This document shows, piece after piece, positions 39,957-53,857 of a stretch of 53,918 nt of DNA; within the stretch, counting starts at the first letter, position 1; each line of letters begins with the position of its first letter. The DNA comes from a virus (Duplodnaviria > Caudoviricetes), in the IMG/VR virus record IMGVR_UViG_3300047554_000854, positions 1-53,918 of that record; one strand, 5' to 3'. The notes beneath the pieces were generated by a model. It made no database searches, was not told where the DNA came from, and saw only the letters and a program-made list of their open reading frames with translations. The translations under genes and the position numbers were made by a program.

Positions 39957-41345
39957 ATGGGTAAATCAATCATGGAGCAGCTTGCTCTCCTCTCGCCAGA
40001 AGAGCAGGCTGAAGCTCTACGCGGTATGGACCCAGACCAACTCCTGTGGGACTGGTCTGTATGGGGTCGCCCAGAACAACAGGCTCCCGAAGGTGACTGG
40101 AACGTATGGCTCGTACTTGCGGGTCGTGGTTTTGGTAAAACCCGTCTTGCATCTGAGTGGGTTCGCGAACAAGCTAAATACACAAATACGGGCCAACGCC
40201 GTTTCGGTCTAGTTGCCCGTACCGCTGGTGACGTGCGTGACGTTATCGTTGAAGGTGAATCTGGAATCCTTAACGTTACGCCTCCTAGCGAGCGTCCGCT
40301 CTACGAGCCGTCTAAGCGACGCCTAACCTGGCCCAACGGAAACGTAGCCTCTCTCTTTACCGCTGACGAGCCTGACTCGCTCCGTGGTCCTCAGTTCACT
40401 CACGCCTGGGGCGATGAGATTGCAGCCTGGCGACAGACTCCTGACGCTGCAGGTATGACCGCGTTCGACAACTTGCGTGTTGGTACTCGTCTAGGAGCCA
40501 ACCCTAAAATTCTTGTTACCACCACCCCGAAACGAACTCCACTGCTTTACAAGCTCATTGAAGAGTCGAAAGGTGGTGGCGTTGCAATCACCCGTGGTTC
40601 GACCATGGACAACGCTGGTAACCTTTCTGGCGCATACCTCGACACAATGCTTGGCGTTTACGAGGGAACCTCTCTCGCCCGCCAGGAACTTTATGGTGAA
40701 ATGCTCGAGGCCATGGAAGGCGCAATGTGGACGGAAGAGCTTATCGAGCGTAGCCGTCACTCGTACATGCCTCAGAGTGCTCCGATGCGTGTAATCGGCG
40801 TTGACCCTAGCGTTGCCGAAAACCCACGAGACGAATGTGGAATTGTTGTTGTTGGCTCGACTTCGGAGTACGACCTCTACAAGCGTCAAGCCTGGGTTTT
40901 GGAGGACGCATCGGTTCTCGGCTCGCCAGACGTTTGGGCACGCAAAGTTGTTGAGATGGCTCGTAAGTGGGGTTGCCCTGTTGTAGCCGAAGTAAACCAG
41001 GGTGGAGCCTTGGTTCGAAACGCCATCAACACAATCGACCCAACCATCAAGGTTCTTGAAGTCCACTCAAAGCAGGGTAAGCAGCTCCGCGCTGAGCCAA
41101 TCACCATGGCATATGAGCAAGACCGCGTTCACCACGTTGGAAAGAGCATGGTTGACCTCGAAACTCAGATGATTACGTGGATTCCAGGCGAGGGAAAGTC
41201 TCCAGACCGCGTCGACGCACTGGTTCACGCCCTCACTGCACTACTTATTAAGCCTCCAGCAGGCTTCTCGGGCGGAAAAATCCGTGCTAGAAGCCTTGCT
41301 GCACGCCGTTTACCAGGTTCTAGCTCAACTTTTAGGGTTCGATAG
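39957..41345 (+). CDS. terL: Terminase large subunit
   Basis: AGRGFGKT Walker A, LRGPQF..AWGDE Walker B, TTTP coupling motif, IGVDP and SPDRVDALV nuclease motifs. Confidence 0.95.
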   Translation: MGKSIMEQLALLSPEEQAEALRGMDPDQLLWDWSVWGRPEQQAPEGDWNVWLVLAGRGFGKTRLASEWVREQAKYTNTGQRRFGLVARTAGDVRDVIVEGESGILNVTPPSERPLYEPSKRRLTWPNGNVASLFTADEPDSLRGPQFTHAWGDEIAAWRQTPDAAGMTAFDNLRVGTRLGANPKILVTTTPKRTPLLYKLIEESKGGGVAITRGSTMDNAGNLSGAYLDTMLGVYEGTSLARQELYGEMLEAMEGAMWTEELIERSRHSYMPQSAPMRVIGVDPSVAENPRDECGIVVVGSTSEYDLYKRQAWVLEDASVLGSPDVWARKVVEMARKWGCPVVAEVNQGGALVRNAINTIDPTIKVLEVHSKQGKQLRAEPITMAYEQDRVHHVGKSMVDLETQMITWIPGEGKSPDRVDALVHALTALLIKPPAGFSGGKIRARSLAARRLPGSSSTFRVR

Positions 41346-41707: not shown

Positions 41708-41995
41708 ATGCCTATCGACGCCCTAAATTTCCTAATTCTTGCGCTTGCCATCTTCAGATTGACCCGTTTGGTTACAACTGACACGATTTTTAACGAATTG
41801 CGGGAGAAAATCTGGAACAAGTTTCCTCCTAACCGAATCAACATCGGTTATTTGATTACTTGCGACTGGTGTACAAGTATTTGGGTGGCCGCTGGCTACG
41901 TTCCACTCGCTCTCCTCTTTCCACAAGTGGTTTTTGTGGTATCATTAGTTCTAGCAACCTCCGCCGTTGTTGGAATCTTAGCCGCACGATTCTAA
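41708..41995 (+). CDS. DUF1360-like membrane protein
   Basis: FRLTRLVTTDTIF..LR...LITCDWCTSIW. Confidence 0.75.
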   Translation: MPIDALNFLILALAIFRLTRLVTTDTIFNELREKIWNKFPPNRINIGYLITCDWCTSIWVAAGYVPLALLFPQVVFVVSLVLATSAVVGILAARF

Positions 41996-42028: not shown

Positions 42029-43834
42029 TTGGGAATTTTTAAACGTGATGGTGGCAATCAGCCGCGCAAGCAATCACCTAACGGCGTTCGTGCTACCAGC
42101 CCTGGCATGAGACCTACTCAGCCTCCTGTATTTCGCGATTCTTTTGGAATTGTCTACGCTACCCCTGCTGCTTTCAACGAACCACGCCCTCTAACTGCTG
42201 CTGCAGCTCAAATTAAGATTGGCGACCAGGGCGAGGCCCTAATTTTCAAGTCTCGACGTCAATCGGCGTCTTCTGCATGGCAGAAGGAGGCTTGGGAGTA
42301 CTACGACGCGATTGGAGAAATCAAATATGCGTTTAACCTCGTTGCTTCAGTTGTATCACGTATCCGACTCTATGCTGCTAGCGTTGATGACCCAGCAGAG
42401 GCTCCTGTTACGGTACGTAAATCAGAGGTAGTCAAGCCAGAGCTTGCTGCCGCAGCTGAGCGAGCCCTTGCTCGCCTAGATAGTGCCTACGGAGGCCAGT
42501 CAGGTTTGCTCAAAGACTGTGCTCTAAACCTTCAGGTTACTGGCGAGTGCTATCTTGTTCAGGTTCCAGAGCGTATTGGCTCTGGCTTGCCTGAGTCTTG
42601 GGATATCCGCTCGACTGACGAGCTTCAGGTTGATGCCAAGGGTAACTACATCATTAACCCACGCCGCGAGGTTGGTAATGGTGGAGCCAGCATCATGTCT
42701 GGTGGTGGCGCAGAGGTCATCAGACTCCCTAAGGACGCTTTTATCGGCCGTATGTGGAAAGCACACCCACGCTACTCCCAGGAGTCTGACAGCTCGCTAC
42801 GTGGCCTCCTAGACCTATGTGCGGAGCTCTTGCTCCTCAACCGCACCTTCCGTGCGACCGCCCGCTCTCGCCTCAACGCTGGTGCTCTTTACTTGCCAGA
42901 CGGCCTCTCGGTTGCAGCTACCGCTGACCCTGACTACCCTTACGACGAAGAGGGAAACTACAACGAGCAGTACAACGCTGAAGAGGCTGCTGACGATTTC
43001 GAAGACCAGCTCATCGATGCGATGACCACTCCTATCAAGGACGAGGACTCGGCATCTGCAGTTGTTCCACTTATCATCCGTGGTCCTGCTGAACTTGGCG
43101 ACAAGATTAAGCAGTTCAAGTTTGAGCGTTCATTCGACCCTGCTCTAGCCGAGCGTTCAGAGCGTGTCCTAGAACGCATCATGCAGGGCCTAGACGTTCC
43201 TAAGGACATCGTTTCGGGTCTGGCTAACGTCAAGTACTCAAATGCCCTCCAGATTGACGAGAGCCTCTACAAGGCCCACATTGAGCCACTGATGTTGCTC
43301 ATTGCTGACGCCATCACAGTTGTCTACTTGCGCCCATACCTTATCGCCAACGGCTATCCAGAGGCAGAGGTAAACCGCCTTGTTATCTGGTACGACCCAA
43401 GCCAGGTTGCTACTCGCAACGACCGCGCTGCAGACGCAGACGCAGGCTTCAACAACATGGCGGTATCCTACGAAACTTGGAGACGTGCTCACGGCTTCTC
43501 GGACCAGGACGCTCCTACTCCTATGGAGTTGGCTCTTCGTCTTGTAATCAATAAGGGTGCTATCACCCCTGAACTTACCGAAGCAATGCTTGGTGCTGTT
43601 GCTCCAGAAATCATGGAGAAGATTAAGGGCATCCAGCAGGCTAACTCGGTAGCACCAGTTCCGCCAGAGGTCGAGGCAGCTCTCGCCCAGGCGGCTCCAA
43701 CTGGACCAATTAACCCAACCGAATCAGCGGAAGGTCAGGAAGTTACCGCACCCGAGGGACTTCTAGCTGAGCCATCTGCCGCTCCAACCGAGGCTGCTCC
43801 TCCAGGGCTAGCCGAACCAACCCCTGAAGGATAA
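42029..43834 (+). CDS. Portal protein
   Basis: Position after terL, 601 aa, WQKEAWEYYDAIGEIKYA...GECYL pattern of actinophage portals. Confidence 0.8.
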   Translation: MGIFKRDGGNQPRKQSPNGVRATSPGMRPTQPPVFRDSFGIVYATPAAFNEPRPLTAAAAQIKIGDQGEALIFKSRRQSASSAWQKEAWEYYDAIGEIKYAFNLVASVVSRIRLYAASVDDPAEAPVTVRKSEVVKPELAAAAERALARLDSAYGGQSGLLKDCALNLQVTGECYLVQVPERIGSGLPESWDIRSTDELQVDAKGNYIINPRREVGNGGASIMSGGGAEVIRLPKDAFIGRMWKAHPRYSQESDSSLRGLLDLCAELLLLNRTFRATARSRLNAGALYLPDGLSVAATADPDYPYDEEGNYNEQYNAEEAADDFEDQLIDAMTTPIKDEDSASAVVPLIIRGPAELGDKIKQFKFERSFDPALAERSERVLERIMQGLDVPKDIVSGLANVKYSNALQIDESLYKAHIEPLMLLIADAITVVYLRPYLIANGYPEAEVNRLVIWYDPSQVATRNDRAADADAGFNNMAVSYETWRRAHGFSDQDAPTPMELALRLVINKGAITPELTEAMLGAVAPEIMEKIKGIQQANSVAPVPPEVEAALAQAAPTGPINPTESAEGQEVTAPEGLLAEPSAAPTEAAPPGLAEPTPEG

Positions 43835-43836
43835 CC

Positions 43837-44319
43837 ATGCACGACCTAAACAACCCAATGGCAATGAAGGGCAGCCCAGCACTAGCTCAGTCGCTGGCTA
43901 AGTTCCTTGCGTCTACCGTTGTACTCAAGTTCACCGCTCACGGCTTCCACTGGAACGTCAAGGGCAAAGACTTCCGCGAGATGCACGACTTCTTTGGCGA
44001 CATCTACGAGGACCTAGAAGGCTCGCTAGACGCTATTGGCGAGAACATCCTTAAGCTCGGCTACGACGCACCTTACATGCTGACTGACTTCCTAGAGCTT
44101 TCGTGCATCGAGCCATGCGACCGCATCTCTGACGGCGACCACCACAAGATGCTGCAGCGTCTACACGCTGACAACCACAAGCTACTCAAGGAAGCCTTCG
44201 AGGCTTTCAAGATTGCTAGCGACTGCAACGAGCAGGGCATTGCTGACTTCCTAGCTGGACGCATTGACATGCTTCAGAAGTGGAACTGGCAGCTCTCGGC
44301 AACACTCAACATCCAGTAG
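43837..44319 (+). CDS. dps: Dps family ferritin-like DNA-protection protein
   Basis: HGFHWNVKGKDF.EMH.FF..IYE......D.IGE, QKWNWQL. Confidence 0.9.
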   Translation: MHDLNNPMAMKGSPALAQSLAKFLASTVVLKFTAHGFHWNVKGKDFREMHDFFGDIYEDLEGSLDAIGENILKLGYDAPYMLTDFLELSCIEPCDRISDGDHHKMLQRLHADNHKLLKEAFEAFKIASDCNEQGIADFLAGRIDMLQKWNWQLSATLNIQ

Positions 44320-46298: not shown

Positions 46299-49200
46299 AT
46301 GTCTGACTACATGGACAATCTCTACGAGAACTTGAACGAGGAAAGCCTCGCAGCCATCACTGCCTCCCTTGGATATAACGATGGAGCTAACAAGGGCTTC
46401 TGGCGTAAGCAGCCTCGCAAGAAGTGGGGTAAGGGCAAGGGTCAGTGGATTGAGATGGGTGCGAGACTTCGTGCTCTCTTCAAGATTGAGGGACAGCTAA
46501 AGAGCATCACTGGTCGTTCTGGTGGTTCTGACGGTACTCCTGACGGCGTTCGTTTCCTTCCAGACGCAGGTCAGCCAGGTGTTGACAGCAACAAGATTTA
46601 TGGCGTAAAGACCGAGCACGTCGAAGAGATTCAGGCTACTCTTCCAGAGAACTACGTTGAGGCTCAGGGCGTTGACGTTGACCGTCAGCAGACTGGTACT
46701 GGCAGCGTTGTTTCTACTGCTAACATCCCAGACATCGAAGACATGGAGACTGCTGACGTAACTCCTGACGACATCCGCATGATTGACGAGGGTGTCAACT
46801 CTGTAGAGGGTCAGGAAGCAGAAAACTACAAGAACACTGACGAAGGTAAGCAAGTTGCTAGCCTTGACCAGGAAGCCGCAGAGGGCGTCCTTGAGACCCC
46901 AACCGAGATTCAGAACCTCCTAGACCAGGGCGGTCAGGAGATGTTTAGGGACGAGCCATCTTCGGCCGTACCGACTCCAGAAGACCTTGGTGACATTGCT
47001 GCGCCTAAGAAGTACAAGGGTCTAAAGGAAATTGCTCCTGGCGTTTTTGAGTATAAAGATGGCTCTGACCGCTACCGTATGCGCCAGGGCAAGGATGGCA
47101 GATGGAGAATTGACTCCGAAGCTAGCAACTCTGACTATGACTTCGATAGTGCTGCCGATAGAAGAGGCGCTAAAGACTCGTGGTACAAGTTGGACGGCTC
47201 GTTTGACAGCGTAGACGACGTTATGGAAAACTTCTTTGCCGTTGAGCCTATCGCCCCTAGAGGCGCTAAGAAAGCTCCAGAGGATGTTATTCCTCTTAGC
47301 GATGCTACGGACAAAGAAAAAGCCGTAACCGAACAAATTTCAAAAGCTGCTAGCGACATCGCTGCTCTCCAGATGAATGCCTCGACACGTAACGATGCTC
47401 CAGAGGCAATGAGAAAAGCTGTTGAAGGTCTAGACCTTACCGACGTTAGACCAGGATATCTAGAAAGCCTCAAGACTGTAAACGAGTCACTAGGTGAACT
47501 AGATACTCGCGTTAGCCAAAGCACTAAGTTTGAAAGAGAAAACGAAGCTAAAATTGCTGAAGCTGCTCTAGCAAAACTACAAGGTCCTGCCCAGGGTGGC
47601 GACCTAACCAGCCCTAAGACTCTCAAAGACTTCGCTGGCTTTGACGCTGTAGACCGTACTGTAGCTGACGTTGTACTCAACAGCCCATCACACTATTGGG
47701 GCGACAACGCTGACATAGAAAACTACAGCAAAGCAGAGTTTGACGCTACTGAAGCAGTCCTTAAGAAGTTCTCTGAGCTAGAAGATTCTGACCTTCCTGA
47801 CTCTGAGATGGTTCCAGAGTTTAGGGACTTTGTTCAGAACTTGGACGGTCTAGAGGGGGGCCTTCGTAGCGATATCCTATCTTCGCTTGACTACTACGAC
47901 AAAGAAAACAAGAAGAAGATTGCAGCCCTAGAACAAGCTGACGACCTAGTCCAGCGTGCCATGGATGGCGAGCCTATCAACATTGACGACGCTCTAAGAA
48001 GCCGCCCTCTAGGCGCAGATGTCGATGACGAAGACGAGTTCGACTACGACAAGGAAGAGCCTTCTGAAGAAGACCTAGCTCGACTTGAAAGTGTAGAGCC
48101 TGACTTTGATATGGACGCTGACTGGAACGACCAGCGTCGTACCGTCGATGTTGTAACACCTTACGACGTATCTCCTGGAGACTACATCCTCACCAAGGAT
48201 GGTCGAGTAGGTCTTGTTCGCGACATTGAAGAGAAAAATGATGGCGACTTCCGAGTAACTTACGTCGAGTCTGAAGATGGCGGAGAGCAGTCCTTCAACC
48301 AGCCATGGGACGGCAACATGAAGCTTGTCACCCTTGGTGTTGGTCCAGAGCCTAAGAAGGTAGACACACCTGCTCCTGCCCCAGCTAAGACTCCTGACGT
48401 AACTCCAGATGTAACTCCTGACGATGACGAAGAAGAGGTACTGGACACCCCCGCTCCAGACACCGCCAGAAGTGACTATGCCCCAGAGGACATCGAGCCT
48501 GGCGACGAGTTCTACACCAAAGACGGTTCTAAGATGCTTGGAACTGTTGTTTGGATTAGAAAGAGCTCGACTCAGCGTGGCCAGTGGGAGATGAAGATTG
48601 CTGACCCAGAGACTGGTCGCCCTATGAGCGGTACATGGCCGTTCACGCAGGGAGAGACTCTCATCAACAAGCCAAACGGTGAGAAGCAGCCTGAGCCAGA
48701 AGTAACTCCAGAACCAGAGGCAGTCGCAACACCTGAACCAGAAGTTACTCCAGAGCCAGAGGTAGTTAACCCTGAGCCAGAGCCAATTCCTCTAGTTGTT
48801 GCTGAGCCAGAGGCTCCAGCTGTAGCTATTCCTGATGCTGGTCCAGCTGTAGTACCTGCTACTAAGCGTACTAAGCCTAAGGTCGACAAGACCGAGCGCA
48901 GACTACCTGAGCCAGTCAAACCTACCGAGATGGAGACTGATGATGGTCAGTCTGAAATTTACTTTCCTCCTGGCGGCGGAGGCCTGGGCGGTCCTGATGA
49001 CCCAGAGGGTCCGAACGGTATCCGTAACGCCAAGGTAGACGTTCTTCGTGATGTAAATGGAAACGTCATTTACGAAGCCGACGAAGATGGTAACCCAATC
49101 TACGTAAACGGTAAGAAGATTCCTATGCTTGACCCTGAAGCGGTCAAGGCTCTTATTAAGAAGTTCTTCCCTAACGCAAAGATTACCCCAGATGGCTTGG

Positions 49201-50573
49201 GTATTAACATCTGGCGTCAGTCGATTGACGGCAACACCTTCGAGATGGGTATTAAGCGCACTGACGCTGGTAACCACGTTGTTGTAGTTGCAGTCACAGA
49301 CGACGCTACTGGTGAGCGTAAAGAGTACATCAGCATTGGTGACCGTAAGTCATGGCAGTCGGTATGGAACTTCCGTAAGGACGGTGGAGGTAACAGCCCA
49401 TTCGCTATTCACCGACTAATTACTGGCACAGCTAAGAGTGCTAAGTTCGGTCGTGACGACTACTCTAAGAAGCCAACCGCTCTAGAGCGTTTCCAATACT
49501 ACCGTCGTCAGAAGAGCATCACCCCTGGTGTACCTCGCTTTGCTACGGCTCAGGAATTCTTCAACGGTATCGTGAATGGTCGCGAAGAGAAGCTAAACTT
49601 CTCGCTACCTATGAACCCTAAGACTGGTATGCGTTACACAATGGATGAGTGGATGGACCCATCCAACCTCCAGGCACGTCTCGACAGCCCTACTTGGATG
49701 ACAGTTAGAGCTGCTCAAGTTGGCTCTTTGAAGAGTGCTATGGATAAGGGTCTTGCTACTGGAGACTACACCGATGCATACTTCTTGATGCTACAGATGA
49801 AGGGTCGTCTACCTCAGGACTTGAACTCGCTTGCTAATCTTCGCAACATGTTCACTGACTACTTTAAGGAGAACTTCCCTAAGGCTAGCCAGCAGAAGAT
49901 TTCTGGTGTTGTTACCTCTGTATCGAACCTCATTACTAGCGGTTTGAAGAGCCCTTCGAAGCTTGAGACCCCATACATCAGTGCTGACGGTCACACCGAA
50001 ATCAAACCTGGTATGTGGATTAAGTACAAGAACATCATGGGTAAGTGGTCTGTCGGTAAAGTTGTGGACCGCCGTCCAAGCGACGACATTGCTCGACCTA
50101 AGCAGACTCCTGATGGTGCATCGTTCCAGCACCACGACCAAGTTGTCGTTGAGTTTGCCAACGGTGAGAAAATCGACCAGATTACTTCTGAGCACCTATA
50201 CCCTCTGAAGAAGACTGACCCAGAGTACAACAACCCTACCAAGTATGAAGGTAAGCCAGAAAAGAGCGAGCGTATCGCTGAGCGTGAGGCCATTATGGGT
50301 CTTCTCTCGGAGATGTACGATGGCGATGGTGACAACGAAGGCGATGAGGATGGCGATGGCCCTACTCCGCCAGCTGGCCCATCTAAGGTCGATGACCTAG
50401 CCCCTGGTGATGGTTTCTACTCTAAGTCTGGTGACCTACTAGGCGAGGTTGTAAAGATTCAGCCAATCAACTCTGGTGGTAAGGCTGGATTTGCTATCGC
50501 CTACGTAACTCCTGAAGGTGAGACCAAGGTTGTTAAGGTTGCAGCTGGAGAACTCCGCGGCCCAAAAGCGTAG
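46299..50573 (+). CDS. Large acidic protein, probably virion-associated (1424 aa; N-terminal part of a frameshift product)
   Basis: QPR...G.WIEMG N-terminal motif, several short beta-rich modules (xPGD), PEPEVT linker repeats. Confidence 0.85.
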   Translation: MSDYMDNLYENLNEESLAAITASLGYNDGANKGFWRKQPRKKWGKGKGQWIEMGARLRALFKIEGQLKSITGRSGGSDGTPDGVRFLPDAGQPGVDSNKIYGVKTEHVEEIQATLPENYVEAQGVDVDRQQTGTGSVVSTANIPDIEDMETADVTPDDIRMIDEGVNSVEGQEAENYKNTDEGKQVASLDQEAAEGVLETPTEIQNLLDQGGQEMFRDEPSSAVPTPEDLGDIAAPKKYKGLKEIAPGVFEYKDGSDRYRMRQGKDGRWRIDSEASNSDYDFDSAADRRGAKDSWYKLDGSFDSVDDVMENFFAVEPIAPRGAKKAPEDVIPLSDATDKEKAVTEQISKAASDIAALQMNASTRNDAPEAMRKAVEGLDLTDVRPGYLESLKTVNESLGELDTRVSQSTKFERENEAKIAEAALAKLQGPAQGGDLTSPKTLKDFAGFDAVDRTVADVVLNSPSHYWGDNADIENYSKAEFDATEAVLKKFSELEDSDLPDSEMVPEFRDFVQNLDGLEGGLRSDILSSLDYYDKENKKKIAALEQADDLVQRAMDGEPINIDDALRSRPLGADVDDEDEFDYDKEEPSEEDLARLESVEPDFDMDADWNDQRRTVDVVTPYDVSPGDYILTKDGRVGLVRDIEEKNDGDFRVTYVESEDGGEQSFNQPWDGNMKLVTLGVGPEPKKVDTPAPAPAKTPDVTPDVTPDDDEEEVLDTPAPDTARSDYAPEDIEPGDEFYTKDGSKMLGTVVWIRKSSTQRGQWEMKIADPETGRPMSGTWPFTQGETLINKPNGEKQPEPEVTPEPEAVATPEPEVTPEPEVVNPEPEPIPLVVAEPEAPAVAIPDAGPAVVPATKRTKPKVDKTERRLPEPVKPTEMETDDGQSEIYFPPGGGGLGGPDDPEGPNGIRNAKVDVLRDVNGNVIYEADEDGNPIYVNGKKIPMLDPEAVKALIKKFFPNAKITPDGLGINIWRQSIDGNTFEMGIKRTDAGNHVVVVAVTDDATGERKEYISIGDRKSWQSVWNFRKDGGGNSPFAIHRLITGTAKSAKFGRDDYSKKPTALERFQYYRRQKSITPGVPRFATAQEFFNGIVNGREEKLNFSLPMNPKTGMRYTMDEWMDPSNLQARLDSPTWMTVRAAQVGSLKSAMDKGLATGDYTDAYFLMLQMKGRLPQDLNSLANLRNMFTDYFKENFPKASQQKISGVVTSVSNLITSGLKSPSKLETPYISADGHTEIKPGMWIKYKNIMGKWSVGKVVDRRPSDDIARPKQTPDGASFQHHDQVVVEFANGEKIDQITSEHLYPLKKTDPEYNNPTKYEGKPEKSERIAEREAIMGLLSEMYDGDGDNEGDEDGDGPTPPAGPSKVDDLAPGDGFYSKSGDLLGEVVKIQPINSGGKAGFAIAYVTPEGETKVVKVAAGELRGPKA

Positions 50574-50620
50574 AGGCTTCTGACTCTACGCCTCGGGCTG
50601 CCGAGGCAACCCCAGAAGCC
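50561..50620 (+). other. Putative programmed -1 frameshift signal
   Basis: C CCA AAA heptamer one codon before TAG; stem GGCTTCTG/CAGAAGCC enclosing GCCTCGG/CCGAGGC. Confidence 0.7.
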
Positions 50621-53600
50621 CCGCGTAAGACTGGACTCTTCAATGAATACTCTTCCGACCGTCTAAATCAGGCTACCGCTGAGAGCACCCCTCTCACGGA
50701 GCTGGGGTTTGACCCAGAAGAAGAGATTACCGTCTATCGTGGCGTACCCGAAGGCGCTGAAGGAATTAATCCTGGCGATTGGGTAACTGACAACAAGCAG
50801 TTGGCTCAGGACTACGCTGGCACTGGCAAGGTTGTCTCGATGAAAGTCAAGGCAAAAGACCTACTAGCTGATAAGTCATCTGGAGAAGGTGCTTACACCG
50901 AAGAGATGGTCTATCGTCCAGCTAAAGCTCTAGACAGCCTAGGCATCGACTTCCAGTCAGCAACTATGGATGCTAGCGGTACTCGCTTGCCTACTCCTGG
51001 AGCCTTCACTGGCCGCTTCCAGAAAATTATGGAAGGTGCTAAGAACTGGAAAGACGTTGCTAAGCGTCTAAAAGGTGAGACAGTAACCTACTTTGACTTC
51101 GAAACAACTGGTATCCCAGACTACGACGGTCAGAACATTACCAACGACCCAGTGCAGCTTGGCGCAGTTCAGGTTAAAGATGGAAAGATTGTAAAGCGTT
51201 TCAACGTCTACATCAATCCAGAAAGCAAACTATCTGATTGGTCAGCTAATAACCTCAAGCGTGACGTTGTAGATGAGAATGGCGACAGAGTTCTTGATGA
51301 GAACGGACGTCCAGAGTCTACGCTAGTCACTCCAGAGTGGTTGGCTCAGCAGACCAGCCAGGAACAGGCTCTGAAGGACTTCATTGAGTTCATCGGACCT
51401 AACGCTTTGCTTGGTGGTCAGAATGTCCCATTCGATGTTGAGATTCTAAAGCGCATGGCTGACAAGTTCGGCATTGACCTAGACATCGCTGGAACCATCG
51501 ACTCGAAGGACCTTGCTTCACTTCTTCCTAAGTATGACCCAGAGAAGGGAATCGACGGACCTAAGGCTCCAGACCGCAAGACTGGTGAGATTAGAGCAAC
51601 CTCTAGCCTCGGTCCAGTTGCAAACTTCCTAGGCTTTGAGCCAGCTAACTGGCACTCAGCTGATGGTGACGCGGAAGACTCCTACAACTTGGTCTCGAAG
51701 ATTATCGACCGTGCTGGTAAGGAAGGCAACGAGGACCTAAGCCTCCTCGACTTCCCTGCAATGGCAGAGCGTTACAAGCAGCGTATGGACGAGTTCAAGG
51801 CTGTTGTTTCCCCTGACAGCCCAATCACCGAGGCTCAGCAGCGTGCTCTACAGAACTTTGCTGACTCCGAATCTTTGAACGTCTCTGACAAAGCTAAGGA
51901 GGCTCTTGCTAACGCATCAACCCGTGGTGAAGCGGCAAAGGCATTAGCAGATATCCACGCTGAAGATGAAGCAGATAGAGCTAGGTCAAATCGACCTCTA
52001 GGTGCTAACCCAGAGAATGGAACCCCTGAGTCATTTGAGCCAGATTTCGATGACGAAGAGTCTGACCCTGACTTTGATGATGTAGACCTTTCTGACTTCC
52101 TAGCCGAGATTAACGAGACCCCTATCCCGCAGCCAGCACCTAAGCCAGTTGCAAAACCTGCAGCTGTTGCTGGTTCAGTCAGAGAAAAGGCCTCAGAGTT
52201 TTCAGCTAGACGCCGTCTAGGTATGAAGCGCAATGAGATTCCTAAGCTGGCTATTGATGTAGAGAATTTGACAGAACTTAGAATCCCTGGTGCTAAACCA
52301 CGTGTAAGGGCTTATGCCCCAACCAGCGAGGCAATAGAGGTTAAAGATGAGATGGTGGCTCTAGGTAGAGAGCTAGTAGACCAGTCTCTAGCCGAGGTAA
52401 CAGCCGAGCTAAAGTCAGAAGGAATTATTGACGAATCTTTCGAGACTGTAGACGAGGCAGTTCAAGCATTTAGTGCCATGAACCTAGAGGCAAACCAAGA
52501 GCTTACAGATACTCAGCGGTTGATGGTTCCGACCATTAGAACCCTGAGAATGGATGCTTTTGATGAACTTACCGCCGAGCAGCGCAAAGAGATTGCCAAC
52601 GAGCTAAACTCAAAGCTTGGTCTTGAAATGACAGAAGCTCAGGTTTTGGATTTTATGGAATCTGGCGACCCAATAGAAATAAAAGACAAGAGCGAATACA
52701 ACAGCATTTGGGATACAGAGAAGCTTTCCGAGGAGCAGCTGGAGGCCAACAAGCTCATCAACGTTAAGCGTAGAGCTGTCAGAGAAAAAATTGAAGACTT
52801 GATTAATGAGAAAGTCTTTAAAACTCCTGTTGGCGATTACAAACTAACCGACAATGAGTGGGGGATTGTCAGGGAACTGCATCTAAAAGAGTTAGCTGGC
52901 ATTGTAGCTCTACAAAAGAGCGATGAAAAGCTTGCTCAGATTCAGAAATTAGCTGACTCCATGAATGAACTAGGGAAAACTAGAAGAAAATTTGACCCTG
53001 ACACCTTAACCAAAGAGATAAACAAACGCCTTCGCGATAAGGCAATGAAGACGCTTAAGGATAATGGATTTAAGTTTGACTCGGTACCACTAAGCGCGTG
53101 GGATGGAGTATTAATCTCTTCTGGCAGTGGACGTAAACCTATTAGCGAGCGAAGCGCTCTAGGTAAGATGTTGCTTGAAGCTTTCCAGTATGTCCCGCAG
53201 AATGTGCTCCTTGCGTCTATTGACATGTTGAAGCTAAATAAACGTAAGCTGACCATTAGGCAGACTAAACCACATGTTCGCGCTCATTTCATGGAACGTG
53301 ACCTCCTAATTAGAGGCGGAACTGCTGACTTTTTGCTACATGAGTTCTGGCACTTTGTCCAATCTGGTAATAAAAATATTCGTGCCCTCGAACACGCATG
53401 GCTTTATGGGAGAATGGCAGATAAAGACGGACAGCTTCCTGGTCTTATTGCAACTGGAGCTTCGAGCGCCGAGCAAGCTTTTGCTGTTAACGGATTGAAC
53501 GAAACATACATTTCTAAGCAGTACGAGGATTTCCGCAGCGGATGGGCCTTTTTCCACCCAAAGAACTCTGCCACCGAGGTAACTACTACATTGATGCAGG

Positions 53601-53857
53601 ACTTGTTTACTGATGTTGGAAGATACTCAAAGCCAAAGGGAAGAACGGCAAAGACAGGTAATGGCCCTAGTACTAAGGTCTATGAGGACCCTTACTACGA
53701 TGAGGCAACTGGCATCTGGTATGCTGACAGTACCAAACAAACAGTAATCCAGCCTAGACTTGTCTATGGTCGCGATGCCTCTCAGGGCATAGACTATGAC
53801 TTCAAAGCTTTTGGATTCGGTCTGCTTATGGCACTACACGACTGGGATGCAAAATGA
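50561..53857 (+). CDS. -1-frame extension: ART-like domain, DEDDh 3'-5' exonuclease and HExxH region
   Basis: Frame open from 50537 with no ATG/GTG/TTG before 50801; ITVYRGVP..INPGDWVT; YFDFETTG, GQNVPFD, HSADGDA; LLHEFWH. Confidence 0.8.
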   Translation, partial: PKSVEASDSTPRAAEATPEAPRKTGLFNEYSSDRLNQATAESTPLTELGFDPEEEITVYRGVPEGAEGINPGDWVTDNKQLAQDYAGTGKVVSMKVKAKDLLADKSSGEGAYTEEMVYRPAKALDSLGIDFQSATMDASGTRLPTPGAFTGRFQKIMEGAKNWKDVAKRLKGETVTYFDFETTGIPDYDGQNITNDPVQLGAVQVKDGKIVKRFNVYINPESKLSDWSANNLKRDVVDENGDRVLDENGRPESTLVTPEWLAQQTSQEQALKDFIEFIGPNALLGGQNVPFDVEILKRMADKFGIDLDIAGTIDSKDLASLLPKYDPEKGIDGPKAPDRKTGEIRATSSLGPVANFLGFEPANWHSADGDAEDSYNLVSKIIDRAGKEGNEDLSLLDFPAMAERYKQRMDEFKAVVSPDSPITEAQQRALQNFADSESLNVSDKAKEALANASTRGEAAKALADIHAEDEADRARSNRPLGANPENGTPESFEPDFDDEESDPDFDDVDLSDFLAEINETPIPQPAPKPVAKPAAVAGSVREKASEFSARRRLGMKRNEIPKLAIDVENLTELRIPGAKPRVRAYAPTSEAIEVKDEMVALGRELVDQSLAEVTAELKSEGIIDESFETVDEAVQAFSAMNLEANQELTDTQRLMVPTIRTLRMDAFDELTAEQRKEIANELNSKLGLEMTEAQVLDFMESGDPIEIKDKSEYNSIWDTEKLSEEQLEANKLINVKRRAVREKIEDLINEKVFKTPVGDYKLTDNEWGIVRELHLKELAGIVALQKSDEKLAQIQKLADSMNELGKTRRKFDPDTLTKEINKRLRDKAMKTLKDNGFKFDSVPLSAWDGVLISSGSGRKPISERSALGKMLLEAFQYVPQNVLLASIDMLKLNKRKLTIRQTKPHVRAHFMERDLLIRGGTADFLLHEFWHFVQSGNKNIRALEHAWLYGRMADKDGQLPGLIATGASSAEQAFAVNGLNETYISKQYEDFRSGWAFFHPKNSATEVTTTLMQDLFTDVGRYSKPKGRTAKTGNGPSTKVYEDPYYDEATGIWYADSTKQTVIQPRLVYGRDASQGIDYDFKAFGFGLLMALHDWDAK

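Follow-up and report, generated by a model that had tools for sequence, protein, structure and literature searches.

A probable programmed −1 ribosomal frameshift site conserved in giant head-module genes of an uncultured phage family

The 53,918-base viral contig analysed in this work, called the window below, covers positions 1 to 53,918 of the IMG/VR record IMGVR_UViG_3300047554_000854 and raises the question of how a frame of more than 1000 codons, with no ordinary start codon near its beginning, comes to be translated. This frame follows a giant open reading frame (ORF), designated ORF1, which closes with the codons GGC CCA AAA GCG TAG; the downstream frame, designated ORF2, lies in the −1 register. 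The answer that accounts best for the data, and is very probably correct, is a canonical −1 programmed ribosomal frameshift at CCCAAAA, shared across the family of ORF1 relatives and placed in a new gene context. A programmed −1 frameshift was also the claim of the original prediction, made on the letters of the window, and it is supported by four findings: the frame break is real, the junctions are conserved, relatives with fused frames exist and initiation proper to ORF2 found no support. That the shift is ribosomal is what we infer from the sequence features described below.

The elements of the junction, in nucleotides (nt) of the window and amino acids (aa) of the products, are as follows.

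46299 to 50573, plus strand: ORF1, the short form of 1424 aa, ending GGC CCA AAA GCG TAG.
50547 to 50550, plus strand: GGAG, 10 nt 5' of the heptamer, a possible Shine-Dalgarno-like stimulator.
50561 to 50567, plus strand: slippery heptamer C CCA AAA, in X XXY YYZ phase with ORF1.
50568 to 50574, plus strand: 7-nt spacer GCGTAGA, including the 0-frame stop TAG (50571-50573) one sense codon past the heptamer.
50575 to 50620, plus strand: nested hairpin of the predicted fold, starting 7 nt after the heptamer.
50567 to 53857, plus strand: −1 frame after the shift, 1096 codons and a stop (53855-53857).

These elements agree with the original prediction as to the codons that end ORF1, the phase of the heptamer, the nested stem 7 nt downstream and the extent of the −1 frame, which is open from 50537 through 53857 and has its first ATG, GTG or TTG at 50801. 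In-phase heptamers are scarce in ORF1, with only two among its 1424 codons, the other being GGGGGGC at 47855. In the predicted hairpin an outer stem of 8 base pairs (bp) joins 50575-50582 to 50613-50620 and an inner stem of 7 bp joins 50590-50596 to 50601-50607, leaving the loop 50597-50600. The fold of the 80 nt counted from the heptamer has an energy of −33.6 kcal/mol versus −21.9 ± 3.1 for dinucleotide shuffles (z −3.83), and a search of 50450-50750 against Rfam gave no family at an expectation value (E) up to 1. A tandem −1 slip would produce a long form of 1423 + 1096 = 2519 aa, the size calculated originally, with the predicted junction peptide ...GPK/SVEASDSTPR. The GGAG upstream of the heptamer is also forced by the Gly-Glu codons in which it lies, and it is not conserved, being GGTG in the related loci L024, L026 and L027.

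It was important to establish that the break is not an assembly or sequencing error, nor a recent inactivating mutation in a decaying gene, since the window is a metagenome-assembled fragment (classed as linear, CheckV completeness estimate 33 %) and the break occurs at a homopolymer. Contigs of four runs (X1, X3, X4 and X6) were aligned over 50200-51000; as these are contigs, rare variants are invisible in them. X1 is possibly the source sample and was not counted as independent, and X6 does not reach the junction. Record 7 of X3, from another study, spans 50522-50672 with 0 differences and 0 gaps, and record 10 of X4, from a third study, spans 50394-50707 with 6 substitutions and 0 gaps. Over 50200-51000 the contigs of the four runs showed no listed insertion or deletion. 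The search for an indel, proposed as a check on the original prediction, thus ended with contigs of two independent studies crossing the junction intact. Because independent contigs bridge the junction without an indel and the break is conserved throughout the family, the frame break in the window is genuine. The same break is found in relatives at 24-70 % protein identity, proteins end there in 42 of 51 clusters, and the downstream frame is open for more than 1000 codons with recognisable domains; against this record an error or a decaying gene is exceedingly improbable.

The position of the heptamer also exceeds chance. Plus-strand ORFs of 100 aa or more were examined in 13 loci, 130 in all; an in-phase heptamer within the last three codons was found in ten, all of them ORF1 homologues, and in none of the other 120.

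The conservation of the junction was followed in DNA of relatives with split frames. The 127-kb viral contig L002 (the same as L024) encodes an ORF2 homologue, the best segment of which is 60 % identical; the match extends over residues 2-1105 of the translated −1 frame and, starting at residue 2, therefore begins upstream of any start codon. ORF1 of this contig ends with CCCAAAA, GCG and TAG, followed by the same outer stem as in the window. The locus L004 (the same as L025), found by a pattern scan, encodes an ORF1 only 24 % identical to that of the window; despite this divergence 30 nt are identical in the two, beginning shortly ahead of the heptamer and reaching into the 5' arm of the hairpin. 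Profile-guided scans added 19 loci of a more distant clade and the four contigs L026-L029. Eighteen split loci represent 14 distinct junctions, four being identical copies.

A heptamer in phase was present in all 14 distinct junctions, CCCAAAA in six (the window, L024, L025, L026, L027 and L029) and AAAAAAA in eight. The stop followed 3 nt later, that is after one sense codon, in 14/14 junctions; L004 has TAG as its stop codon, and its near relative L029 has TAA. Past the stop the −1 frame is open for another 261-1092 codons in every case, and the +1 frame runs into a stop within 1-17 codons. Ten of the 14 minimum-energy folds show a GC-rich hairpin that begins 5-8 nt beyond the heptamer. The conservation of the break in relatives, to which the original prediction had pointed as a check, is thus documented for the heptamer and the stop in all junctions and for the hairpin in most of them. 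The hairpin sequences differ between clades: the window clade carries the nested stem, L026 and L027 a different 6-bp stem, and the AAAAAAA clade stems of the type CCCCT/AGGGG, CCCCC/GGGGG or CCCCGA/TCGGGG. In the four sequences of the window clade 98.3 % of 60 pair cells hold standard pairs, compared with 35-50 % when the partners are slid; one pair is changed on both sides (G-C to A-U) and two are changed from C-G or U-A to U-G.

The A-rich sites allow another explanation, in which RNA polymerase slips on the run of A and adds one A to some transcripts, from which the long form is then translated. Bacterial transcriptional slippage occurs at runs of seven or more A. Eight of the 14 junctions hold at least seven A, and slippage would have nearly the same protein outcome, which in the AAAAAAA clade counts against a shift made by the ribosome. 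In the window and in five other junctions the run is just four A long, on which slippage is unlikely. In addition, the X XXY YYZ phase, the spacing of 5-8 nt and the conserved stable hairpin belong to the textbook picture of ribosomal shifting, and polymerase slippage does not require them. As the source of the long form this explanation appears highly improbable, although slippage may contribute in the AAAAAAA clade.

Relatives were also collected at the protein level by searching the last 520 aa of ORF1 against 50 %-identity cluster representatives of about 15 billion proteins (E ≤ 0.001). The search gave 51 representatives homologous to the C-terminus of ORF1, and 42 of them end with PK or KK and 0-1 further residue (GPKA in 10, PKKA in 6, GPK in 6, SPK in 4, others in the rest), the endings expected if C CCA AAA or A AAA AAR is conserved and a stop stands close behind it. 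The other nine continue in a single frame. In six of these (P0017, P0020, P0022, P0023, P0030 and P0035) the motif ...GE.RGP(K/R/N), GEIRAPK in P0035, leads directly into a linker, which is followed by the acidic ...SDPDFDLD... in five and by ...SDPGF... in P0035; the C-termini of these six proteins resemble that of the −1 ORF of L004. The 2576-aa P0034 is colinear with ORF1 and then ORF2: its residues 1-150 correspond to ORF1 5-164, residues 1496-1995 to ORF1 929-1410 and residues 2011-2558 to ORF2 547-1103 (E 7e-45). P0043 matches both ORF1 and ORF2, including the C-terminal region of the latter. The ORF2-like continuation was examined in eight of the nine fused representatives, P0021 being the one left out. 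Within its ORF1-like part P0034 carries a UvrD-type helicase (residues 339-993; Pfam UvrD-helicase, E 1.8e-17).

Six fused loci were available as DNA, and they read GGA CCT AAT, GGC CCT AAG or GGA CCT AAG at the junction. These relatives thus have Gly-Pro-Lys/Asn in codons that are not slippery, with no stop behind them, which supports the fusion as the functional product. The original prediction had named homologues with one continuous frame as evidence that would speak against it. Such homologues do exist (nine of 51, six loci as DNA), yet they bring no sign of an error in the window, and they are distant members of the family. A tree was built from 36 rows, with 16 of the 51 representatives left out as partial matches and the last six aligned residues removed. 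The fused forms are nested among split forms and need at least three changes of state, which may have gone in either direction.

The acidic motif (E/S)DPDFD(D/L).(D/E)L recurs at module boundaries of these proteins. It stands just past the frameshift junction in many relatives (L004, L005-L008) and in the fused P0017-P0030, and in the window it was found in ORF1 (...EPDFDMDADW..., approximately 48125-48160) and in ORF2 (...EPDFDDEESDPDFDDVDLSDF..., approximately 52040-52100). It could be a cleavage site of the metallopeptidase described below, or a docking motif.

Two features near the beginning of the −1 frame bear on the manner of its translation.

50624 to 50926, plus strand: shuffled module of about 100 aa (KTGLFNEY...VYRGVP...GDWVT...EEMVYRP), recognised by BLASTP and by PHROG 2579 (E 4.1e-10).
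50801 to 50803, plus strand: TTG, the first canonical start of the −1 frame, at residue 81 from the heptamer and inside the module.

If ORF1 and ORF2 were two genes, ORF2 would be initiated on its own at TTG 50801, ATG 50966 or one of CTG 50702, ATT 50726 and ATT 50765, perhaps coupled to termination of ORF1, and the heptamer would be a by-product of the Gly-Pro-Lys ending. Database calls do start ORF2 homologues at such places (P0055 at the TTG; P0058, P0059, P0063 and P0070 at MDASG), and the Met of ...ATMDASG is invariant in a three-way alignment; the same Met is internal, however, in the single-frame P0057. No ATG, GTG or TTG occurs in the −1 frame for 230 nt, up to the TTG at 50801, and initiation there would cut the YRG...GDWVT module, which spans residues 22-122 approximately, as had been claimed. 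With BLASTP the 152 residues past the heptamer, and with them the module ahead of these starts, were matched in the interior of more than 25 large proteins (57-77 % identity), and this homology begins at residue 1-22 past the slip site. A Shine-Dalgarno-like motif was sought before TTG 50801 and ATG 50966 and was absent, and none precedes any candidate start, whereas most of the 13 other listed gene starts in the window have an AGGA/GGAG-like motif 6-10 nt upstream.

The position of the first canonical start also varies between near relatives: it lies 80-293 nt past the stop in the loci compared, and at 83 versus 188 nt in the close pair L026/L027. Between these two, 8 synonymous changes stand against 1 non-synonymous change in the stretch ahead of the first start. 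The fused relatives keep Gly-Pro-Lys/Asn with non-slippery codons, therefore the residues alone do not explain CCA AAA, and the stop stands exactly one codon past the heptamer in all 14 junctions. Independent initiation, the other outcome named originally as able to overturn the prediction, is thus unsupported, and a pair of separately started genes is quite improbable.

The module that the TTG interrupts is 54 % identical to residues 131-198 of P0098. Among Pfam models only ART-PolyVal was hit at relaxed E (0.19, below the cutoff), and the Atlas leads were PARP and Arr with scores of 0.82-0.83; the module may be ADP-ribosyltransferase-like. It precedes the exonuclease in the window and follows it in P0059 and P0063, and in L002 it is absent, its place being taken by another small module (WKM..VTYT.SNGY). 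The close ORF2 homologues P0058, P0059 and P0063 differ from the window in module order, and the domains behind the slip site seem to be reshuffled rapidly. P0055, a database copy 98 % identical to ORF2, was called from TTG 50801 and named 'DNA polymerase III epsilon subunit-like protein'. ORF2 is both shortened and misnamed by automatic annotation.

The remainder of ORF2 contains two further domains.

51059 to 51787, plus strand: DnaQ-like 3'-5' exonuclease, Pfam RNase_T (PF00929), E 5.1e-11, 43.8 bits versus a cutoff of 24.
53084 to 53851, plus strand: probable zincin-like metallopeptidase domain, with HEFWH at 53339-53353.

The exonuclease is also matched by PHROG 192 (E 2.9e-17, over residues 175-417 of P0002) and shows the acidic motifs FDFETTG and HSADGD, which we take to be Exo motifs. 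In the metallopeptidase domain the H, E and H of HEFWH are invariant in 12 aligned homologues. The model of the ORF2 C-terminus (mean predicted local distance difference test score, pLDDT, 86.2) found its best structural matches in lethal-factor-type and Pro-Pro endopeptidase zincins over model residues 330-585, with Z of 7.9, 6.4 and 6.3 for 139-154 aligned residues, values below 8 that give only moderate support. The search of this model against PDB with Foldseek gave nothing at E ≤ 0.001, and the domain of the window protein has no Pfam match; its relatives give sub-threshold matches to ATLF or Peptidase_M57 (E about 0.007). ORF2 homologues carry RNase_T, ADPrib_exo_Tox, ART-PolyVal, GNAT and UvrD helicase domains, and the order of RNase_T, ADP-ribosyltransferase and GNAT varies among them. 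The 2519-aa long form would combine the exonuclease, the zincin-like domain and the shuffled module of about 100 aa.

ORF1 carries a conserved motif in its N-terminal part, GANKGFW..Q.R....G.W.EMG, along with linkers rich in Pro and Glu and small modules of the beta-barrel type; its C-terminal core, also conserved and about 520 aa long, ends ...GELRGPKA. No family was found for it in Pfam or PHROG, and no homology to tail chaperones in the same databases. The core was modelled from 27 sequences (mean pLDDT 77.9), and Foldseek searches of PDB and BFVD gave nothing at E ≤ 0.001, only sub-threshold Tudor/KOW-like barrels. The N-terminal motif also stands at the N-terminus of many giant proteins encoded by a single ORF, and these carry the module of about 100 aa and ADP-ribosyltransferase domains as well.

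Nearly all long ORFs of the window lie on the plus strand, and the genes upstream of ORF1 include the following.

39957 to 41345, plus strand: large terminase.
41708 to 41995, plus strand: small ORF between the terminase and portal genes, Pfam DUF1360 (E 3.6e-15).
42029 to 43834, plus strand: portal protein, PHROG 776 (E 1.6e-105).
43837 to 44319, plus strand: ferritin/Dps-like gene directly 3' of the portal gene, Pfam Ferritin (E 9.1e-16), PHROG 3636 'DNA binding protein'.

The ferritin/Dps-like gene is an unusual item in a head module, and the two ORFs that follow it have no family matches. No tail genes flank ORF1 within the window, and the claim that the site lies outside the usual tail-chaperone context was borne out: the 1424-aa ORF1 follows genes of the portal and head region. 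The portal protein shares 74 % identity with its counterpart in Actinomycetia phage DSL-LC01, a phage of lake water, and 58-65 % with the portals of large Microbacterium phages. By portal identity the nearest cultured phages are DSL-LC01 and Pumpernickel, and both have giant unannotated ORFs just downstream of the portal gene, of 3289 aa in DSL-LC01 (L030, OQ999401.1 52800-62669) and of 2235 and 1534 aa in Pumpernickel (L031, NC_073468.1 33383-40090 and 40711-45315). BLASTP of the 3289-aa ORF against ORF1 and ORF2 revealed no significant similarity (best E 0.11 and 0.21). In Pumpernickel the annotated chaperone pair sits elsewhere, before the tape measure gene.

Among cultured phages a DNA search with the junction region gave no match, tblastn with the ORF1 core none, and tblastn with ORF2 one weak match. 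A profile search of genome contigs with alignment A4 gave no relative, and no prophage copy or host was found there; profile searches of viral contigs with alignment A4 and with P0024 gave no confirmed relative, and a scan of metagenome contigs for a 20-nt junction word gave 0 matches. The runs that contain the window stretch are mostly labelled as freshwater metagenomes, and none of those listed is recorded as RNA.

The domain content of the long form recalls the polyvalent proteins of portal-terminase phages and conjugative elements, which are described as giant multidomain proteins built around a zincin-like metallopeptidase hub related to the lethal-factor peptidase, with shuffled effector domains, and are presumed to enter the head by packaging and to undergo processing (Iyer, Burroughs, Anand, de Souza and Aravind 2017, PMC5512222). 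The window agrees with this picture in its HExxH domain with moderate lethal-factor-type structural matches, in the ADP-ribosyltransferase, GNAT and helicase modules of its homologues and in the location of the gene downstream of the terminase and portal genes. It differs in that the polyvalent proteins described there are single polypeptides by annotation, whereas the array in the window is split by a conserved recoding site. The word 'frameshift' occurs 0 times in PMC5512222, and none of the Pfam models of polyvalent proteins reaches its cutoff on the window protein.

On the frameshift reading the following course of events is proposed. A ribosome translating ORF1 would reach C CCA AAA with the transfer RNAs (tRNAs) for Pro and Lys in the P and A sites and would meet the nested hairpin, which begins 7 nt further on; a share of the time, both tRNAs would slip back by one base and pair with CCC AAA. 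Without a shift, the ribosome would read GCG, stop at TAG and release the 1424-aa short form; after a shift it would continue for 1096 codons to give the 2519-aa long form. ORF1 would then be the carrier part of a giant head-module protein, and the −1 extension, having no start codon of its own, would add the shuffled module of about 100 aa, the DnaQ-like exonuclease and the zincin-like metallopeptidase, which is the make-up of a polyvalent protein. The protein may be packaged and injected, the long form being cut by its metallopeptidase, and the ratio of short to long form may set the number of enzyme-bearing copies that enter the capsid, on the principle of Gag/Gag-Pol or gpG/gpGT.

Several known systems share parts of this arrangement. 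In the tail chaperones of the lambda gpG/gpGT type, a conserved −1 shift near the end of the upstream ORF likewise yields a short and a long protein with a common N-terminal part, its position being conserved while the sequence diverges, and the heptamer is close to the 0-frame stop. The chaperone genes stand between those for the tail tube and the tape measure, whereas the gene in the window is placed in the head module after the terminase and portal genes; its extension of 1096 aa carries enzyme domains, and ORF1 has no chaperone homology. The gene for the major head protein of Lactobacillus phage A2 is said to use the same heptamer, C CCA AAA, with a downstream stem-loop. In this gene and in gene 10A/10B of T7, a −1 shift close to where the head gene ends reportedly extends a fraction of the copies, as is proposed for the window; the A2 and T7 extensions are short and structural, whereas that in the window nearly doubles a giant non-capsid protein and adds catalytic modules.

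In retroviruses the enzymes of Gag-Pol lack a separate start; a frameshift fusion to a more abundant carrier is their only way into the particle, and a protease within this fusion afterwards cleaves it. In the window the analogue of this protease would be the C-terminal zincin-like domain. The viruses belong to unrelated realms, however, their proteins are unrelated, and packaging, ratio and self-cleavage are, for the window, conjectural. The signal of E. coli dnaX consists of an A-rich heptamer, a downstream hairpin that is not a pseudoknot and an upstream Shine-Dalgarno-like element. The window has an A-rich heptamer and a hairpin as well, and its GGAG about 10 nt upstream is a possible counterpart of the third element; in contrast to that of dnaX, where the shift shortens the product, the shift in the window would lengthen it, and the GGAG lacks conservation.

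Some observations weigh against the interpretation of the junction as a programmed frameshift, or against its consequences, in addition to the A runs discussed above. Four of the 14 folds have no simple hairpin at 5-8 nt but extend into the spacer or take another form, and the z-scores of the folds range from −0.37 to −4.60 across the 14 junctions. Covariation in the window clade is thin, with four sequences and one two-sided change, and 133 of 500 shuffles score equally. Upstream of the first start the three other close pairs are uninformative (2:2, 0:1 and 2:5 synonymous to non-synonymous changes). The Met encoded by ATG 50966 is retained in many homologues and is used by gene callers as a start, and an additional internal start for ORF2 may be in use. 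The evidence for the shifted product consists of sequence comparison and predicted folds, and the grounds for capsid packaging and self-cleavage are only the position of the gene and the account of Iyer et al. 2017 (PMC5512222).

A search of open-access papers and preprints, with supplements such as the gene lists of PRFect outside its scope, gave no report of a frameshift in this gene context. The signal itself is an ordinary −1 site; its gene context is new as far as this search goes. Programmed frameshifts of tailed phages have been annotated almost only in tail chaperone genes and a few capsid genes, and the training set of PRFect is essentially composed of the same two classes. To these is added a canonical −1 site that would join a carrier to a long enzyme array and that has been kept in 42 of 51 clusters (50 % identity) of a large family without cultured members. 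Because gene callers truncate or mis-start the second ORF, the true products of about 2500 aa are missing from protein databases.

A broader proposal, held with slightly less than even confidence, is that the fixed −1 site serves as a 'plug-in socket' of the giant head-module proteins of uncultured freshwater phages, probably phages of Actinobacteria. The carrier would end at a conserved beta-barrel domain; behind it, effector arrays (exonuclease, ADP-ribosyltransferase-like module, metallopeptidase and others) would be exchanged freely among relatives and would reach the capsid only as a sub-stoichiometric frameshift fusion, a Gag-Pol strategy in tailed phages, and the family would have switched repeatedly between split and fused forms. 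The family offers natural paired controls in its fused relatives with non-slippery codons and its split relatives. If the ratio of the short to the long form does control capsid loading, it would provide these phages with a simple and testable dosage control of injected proteins.

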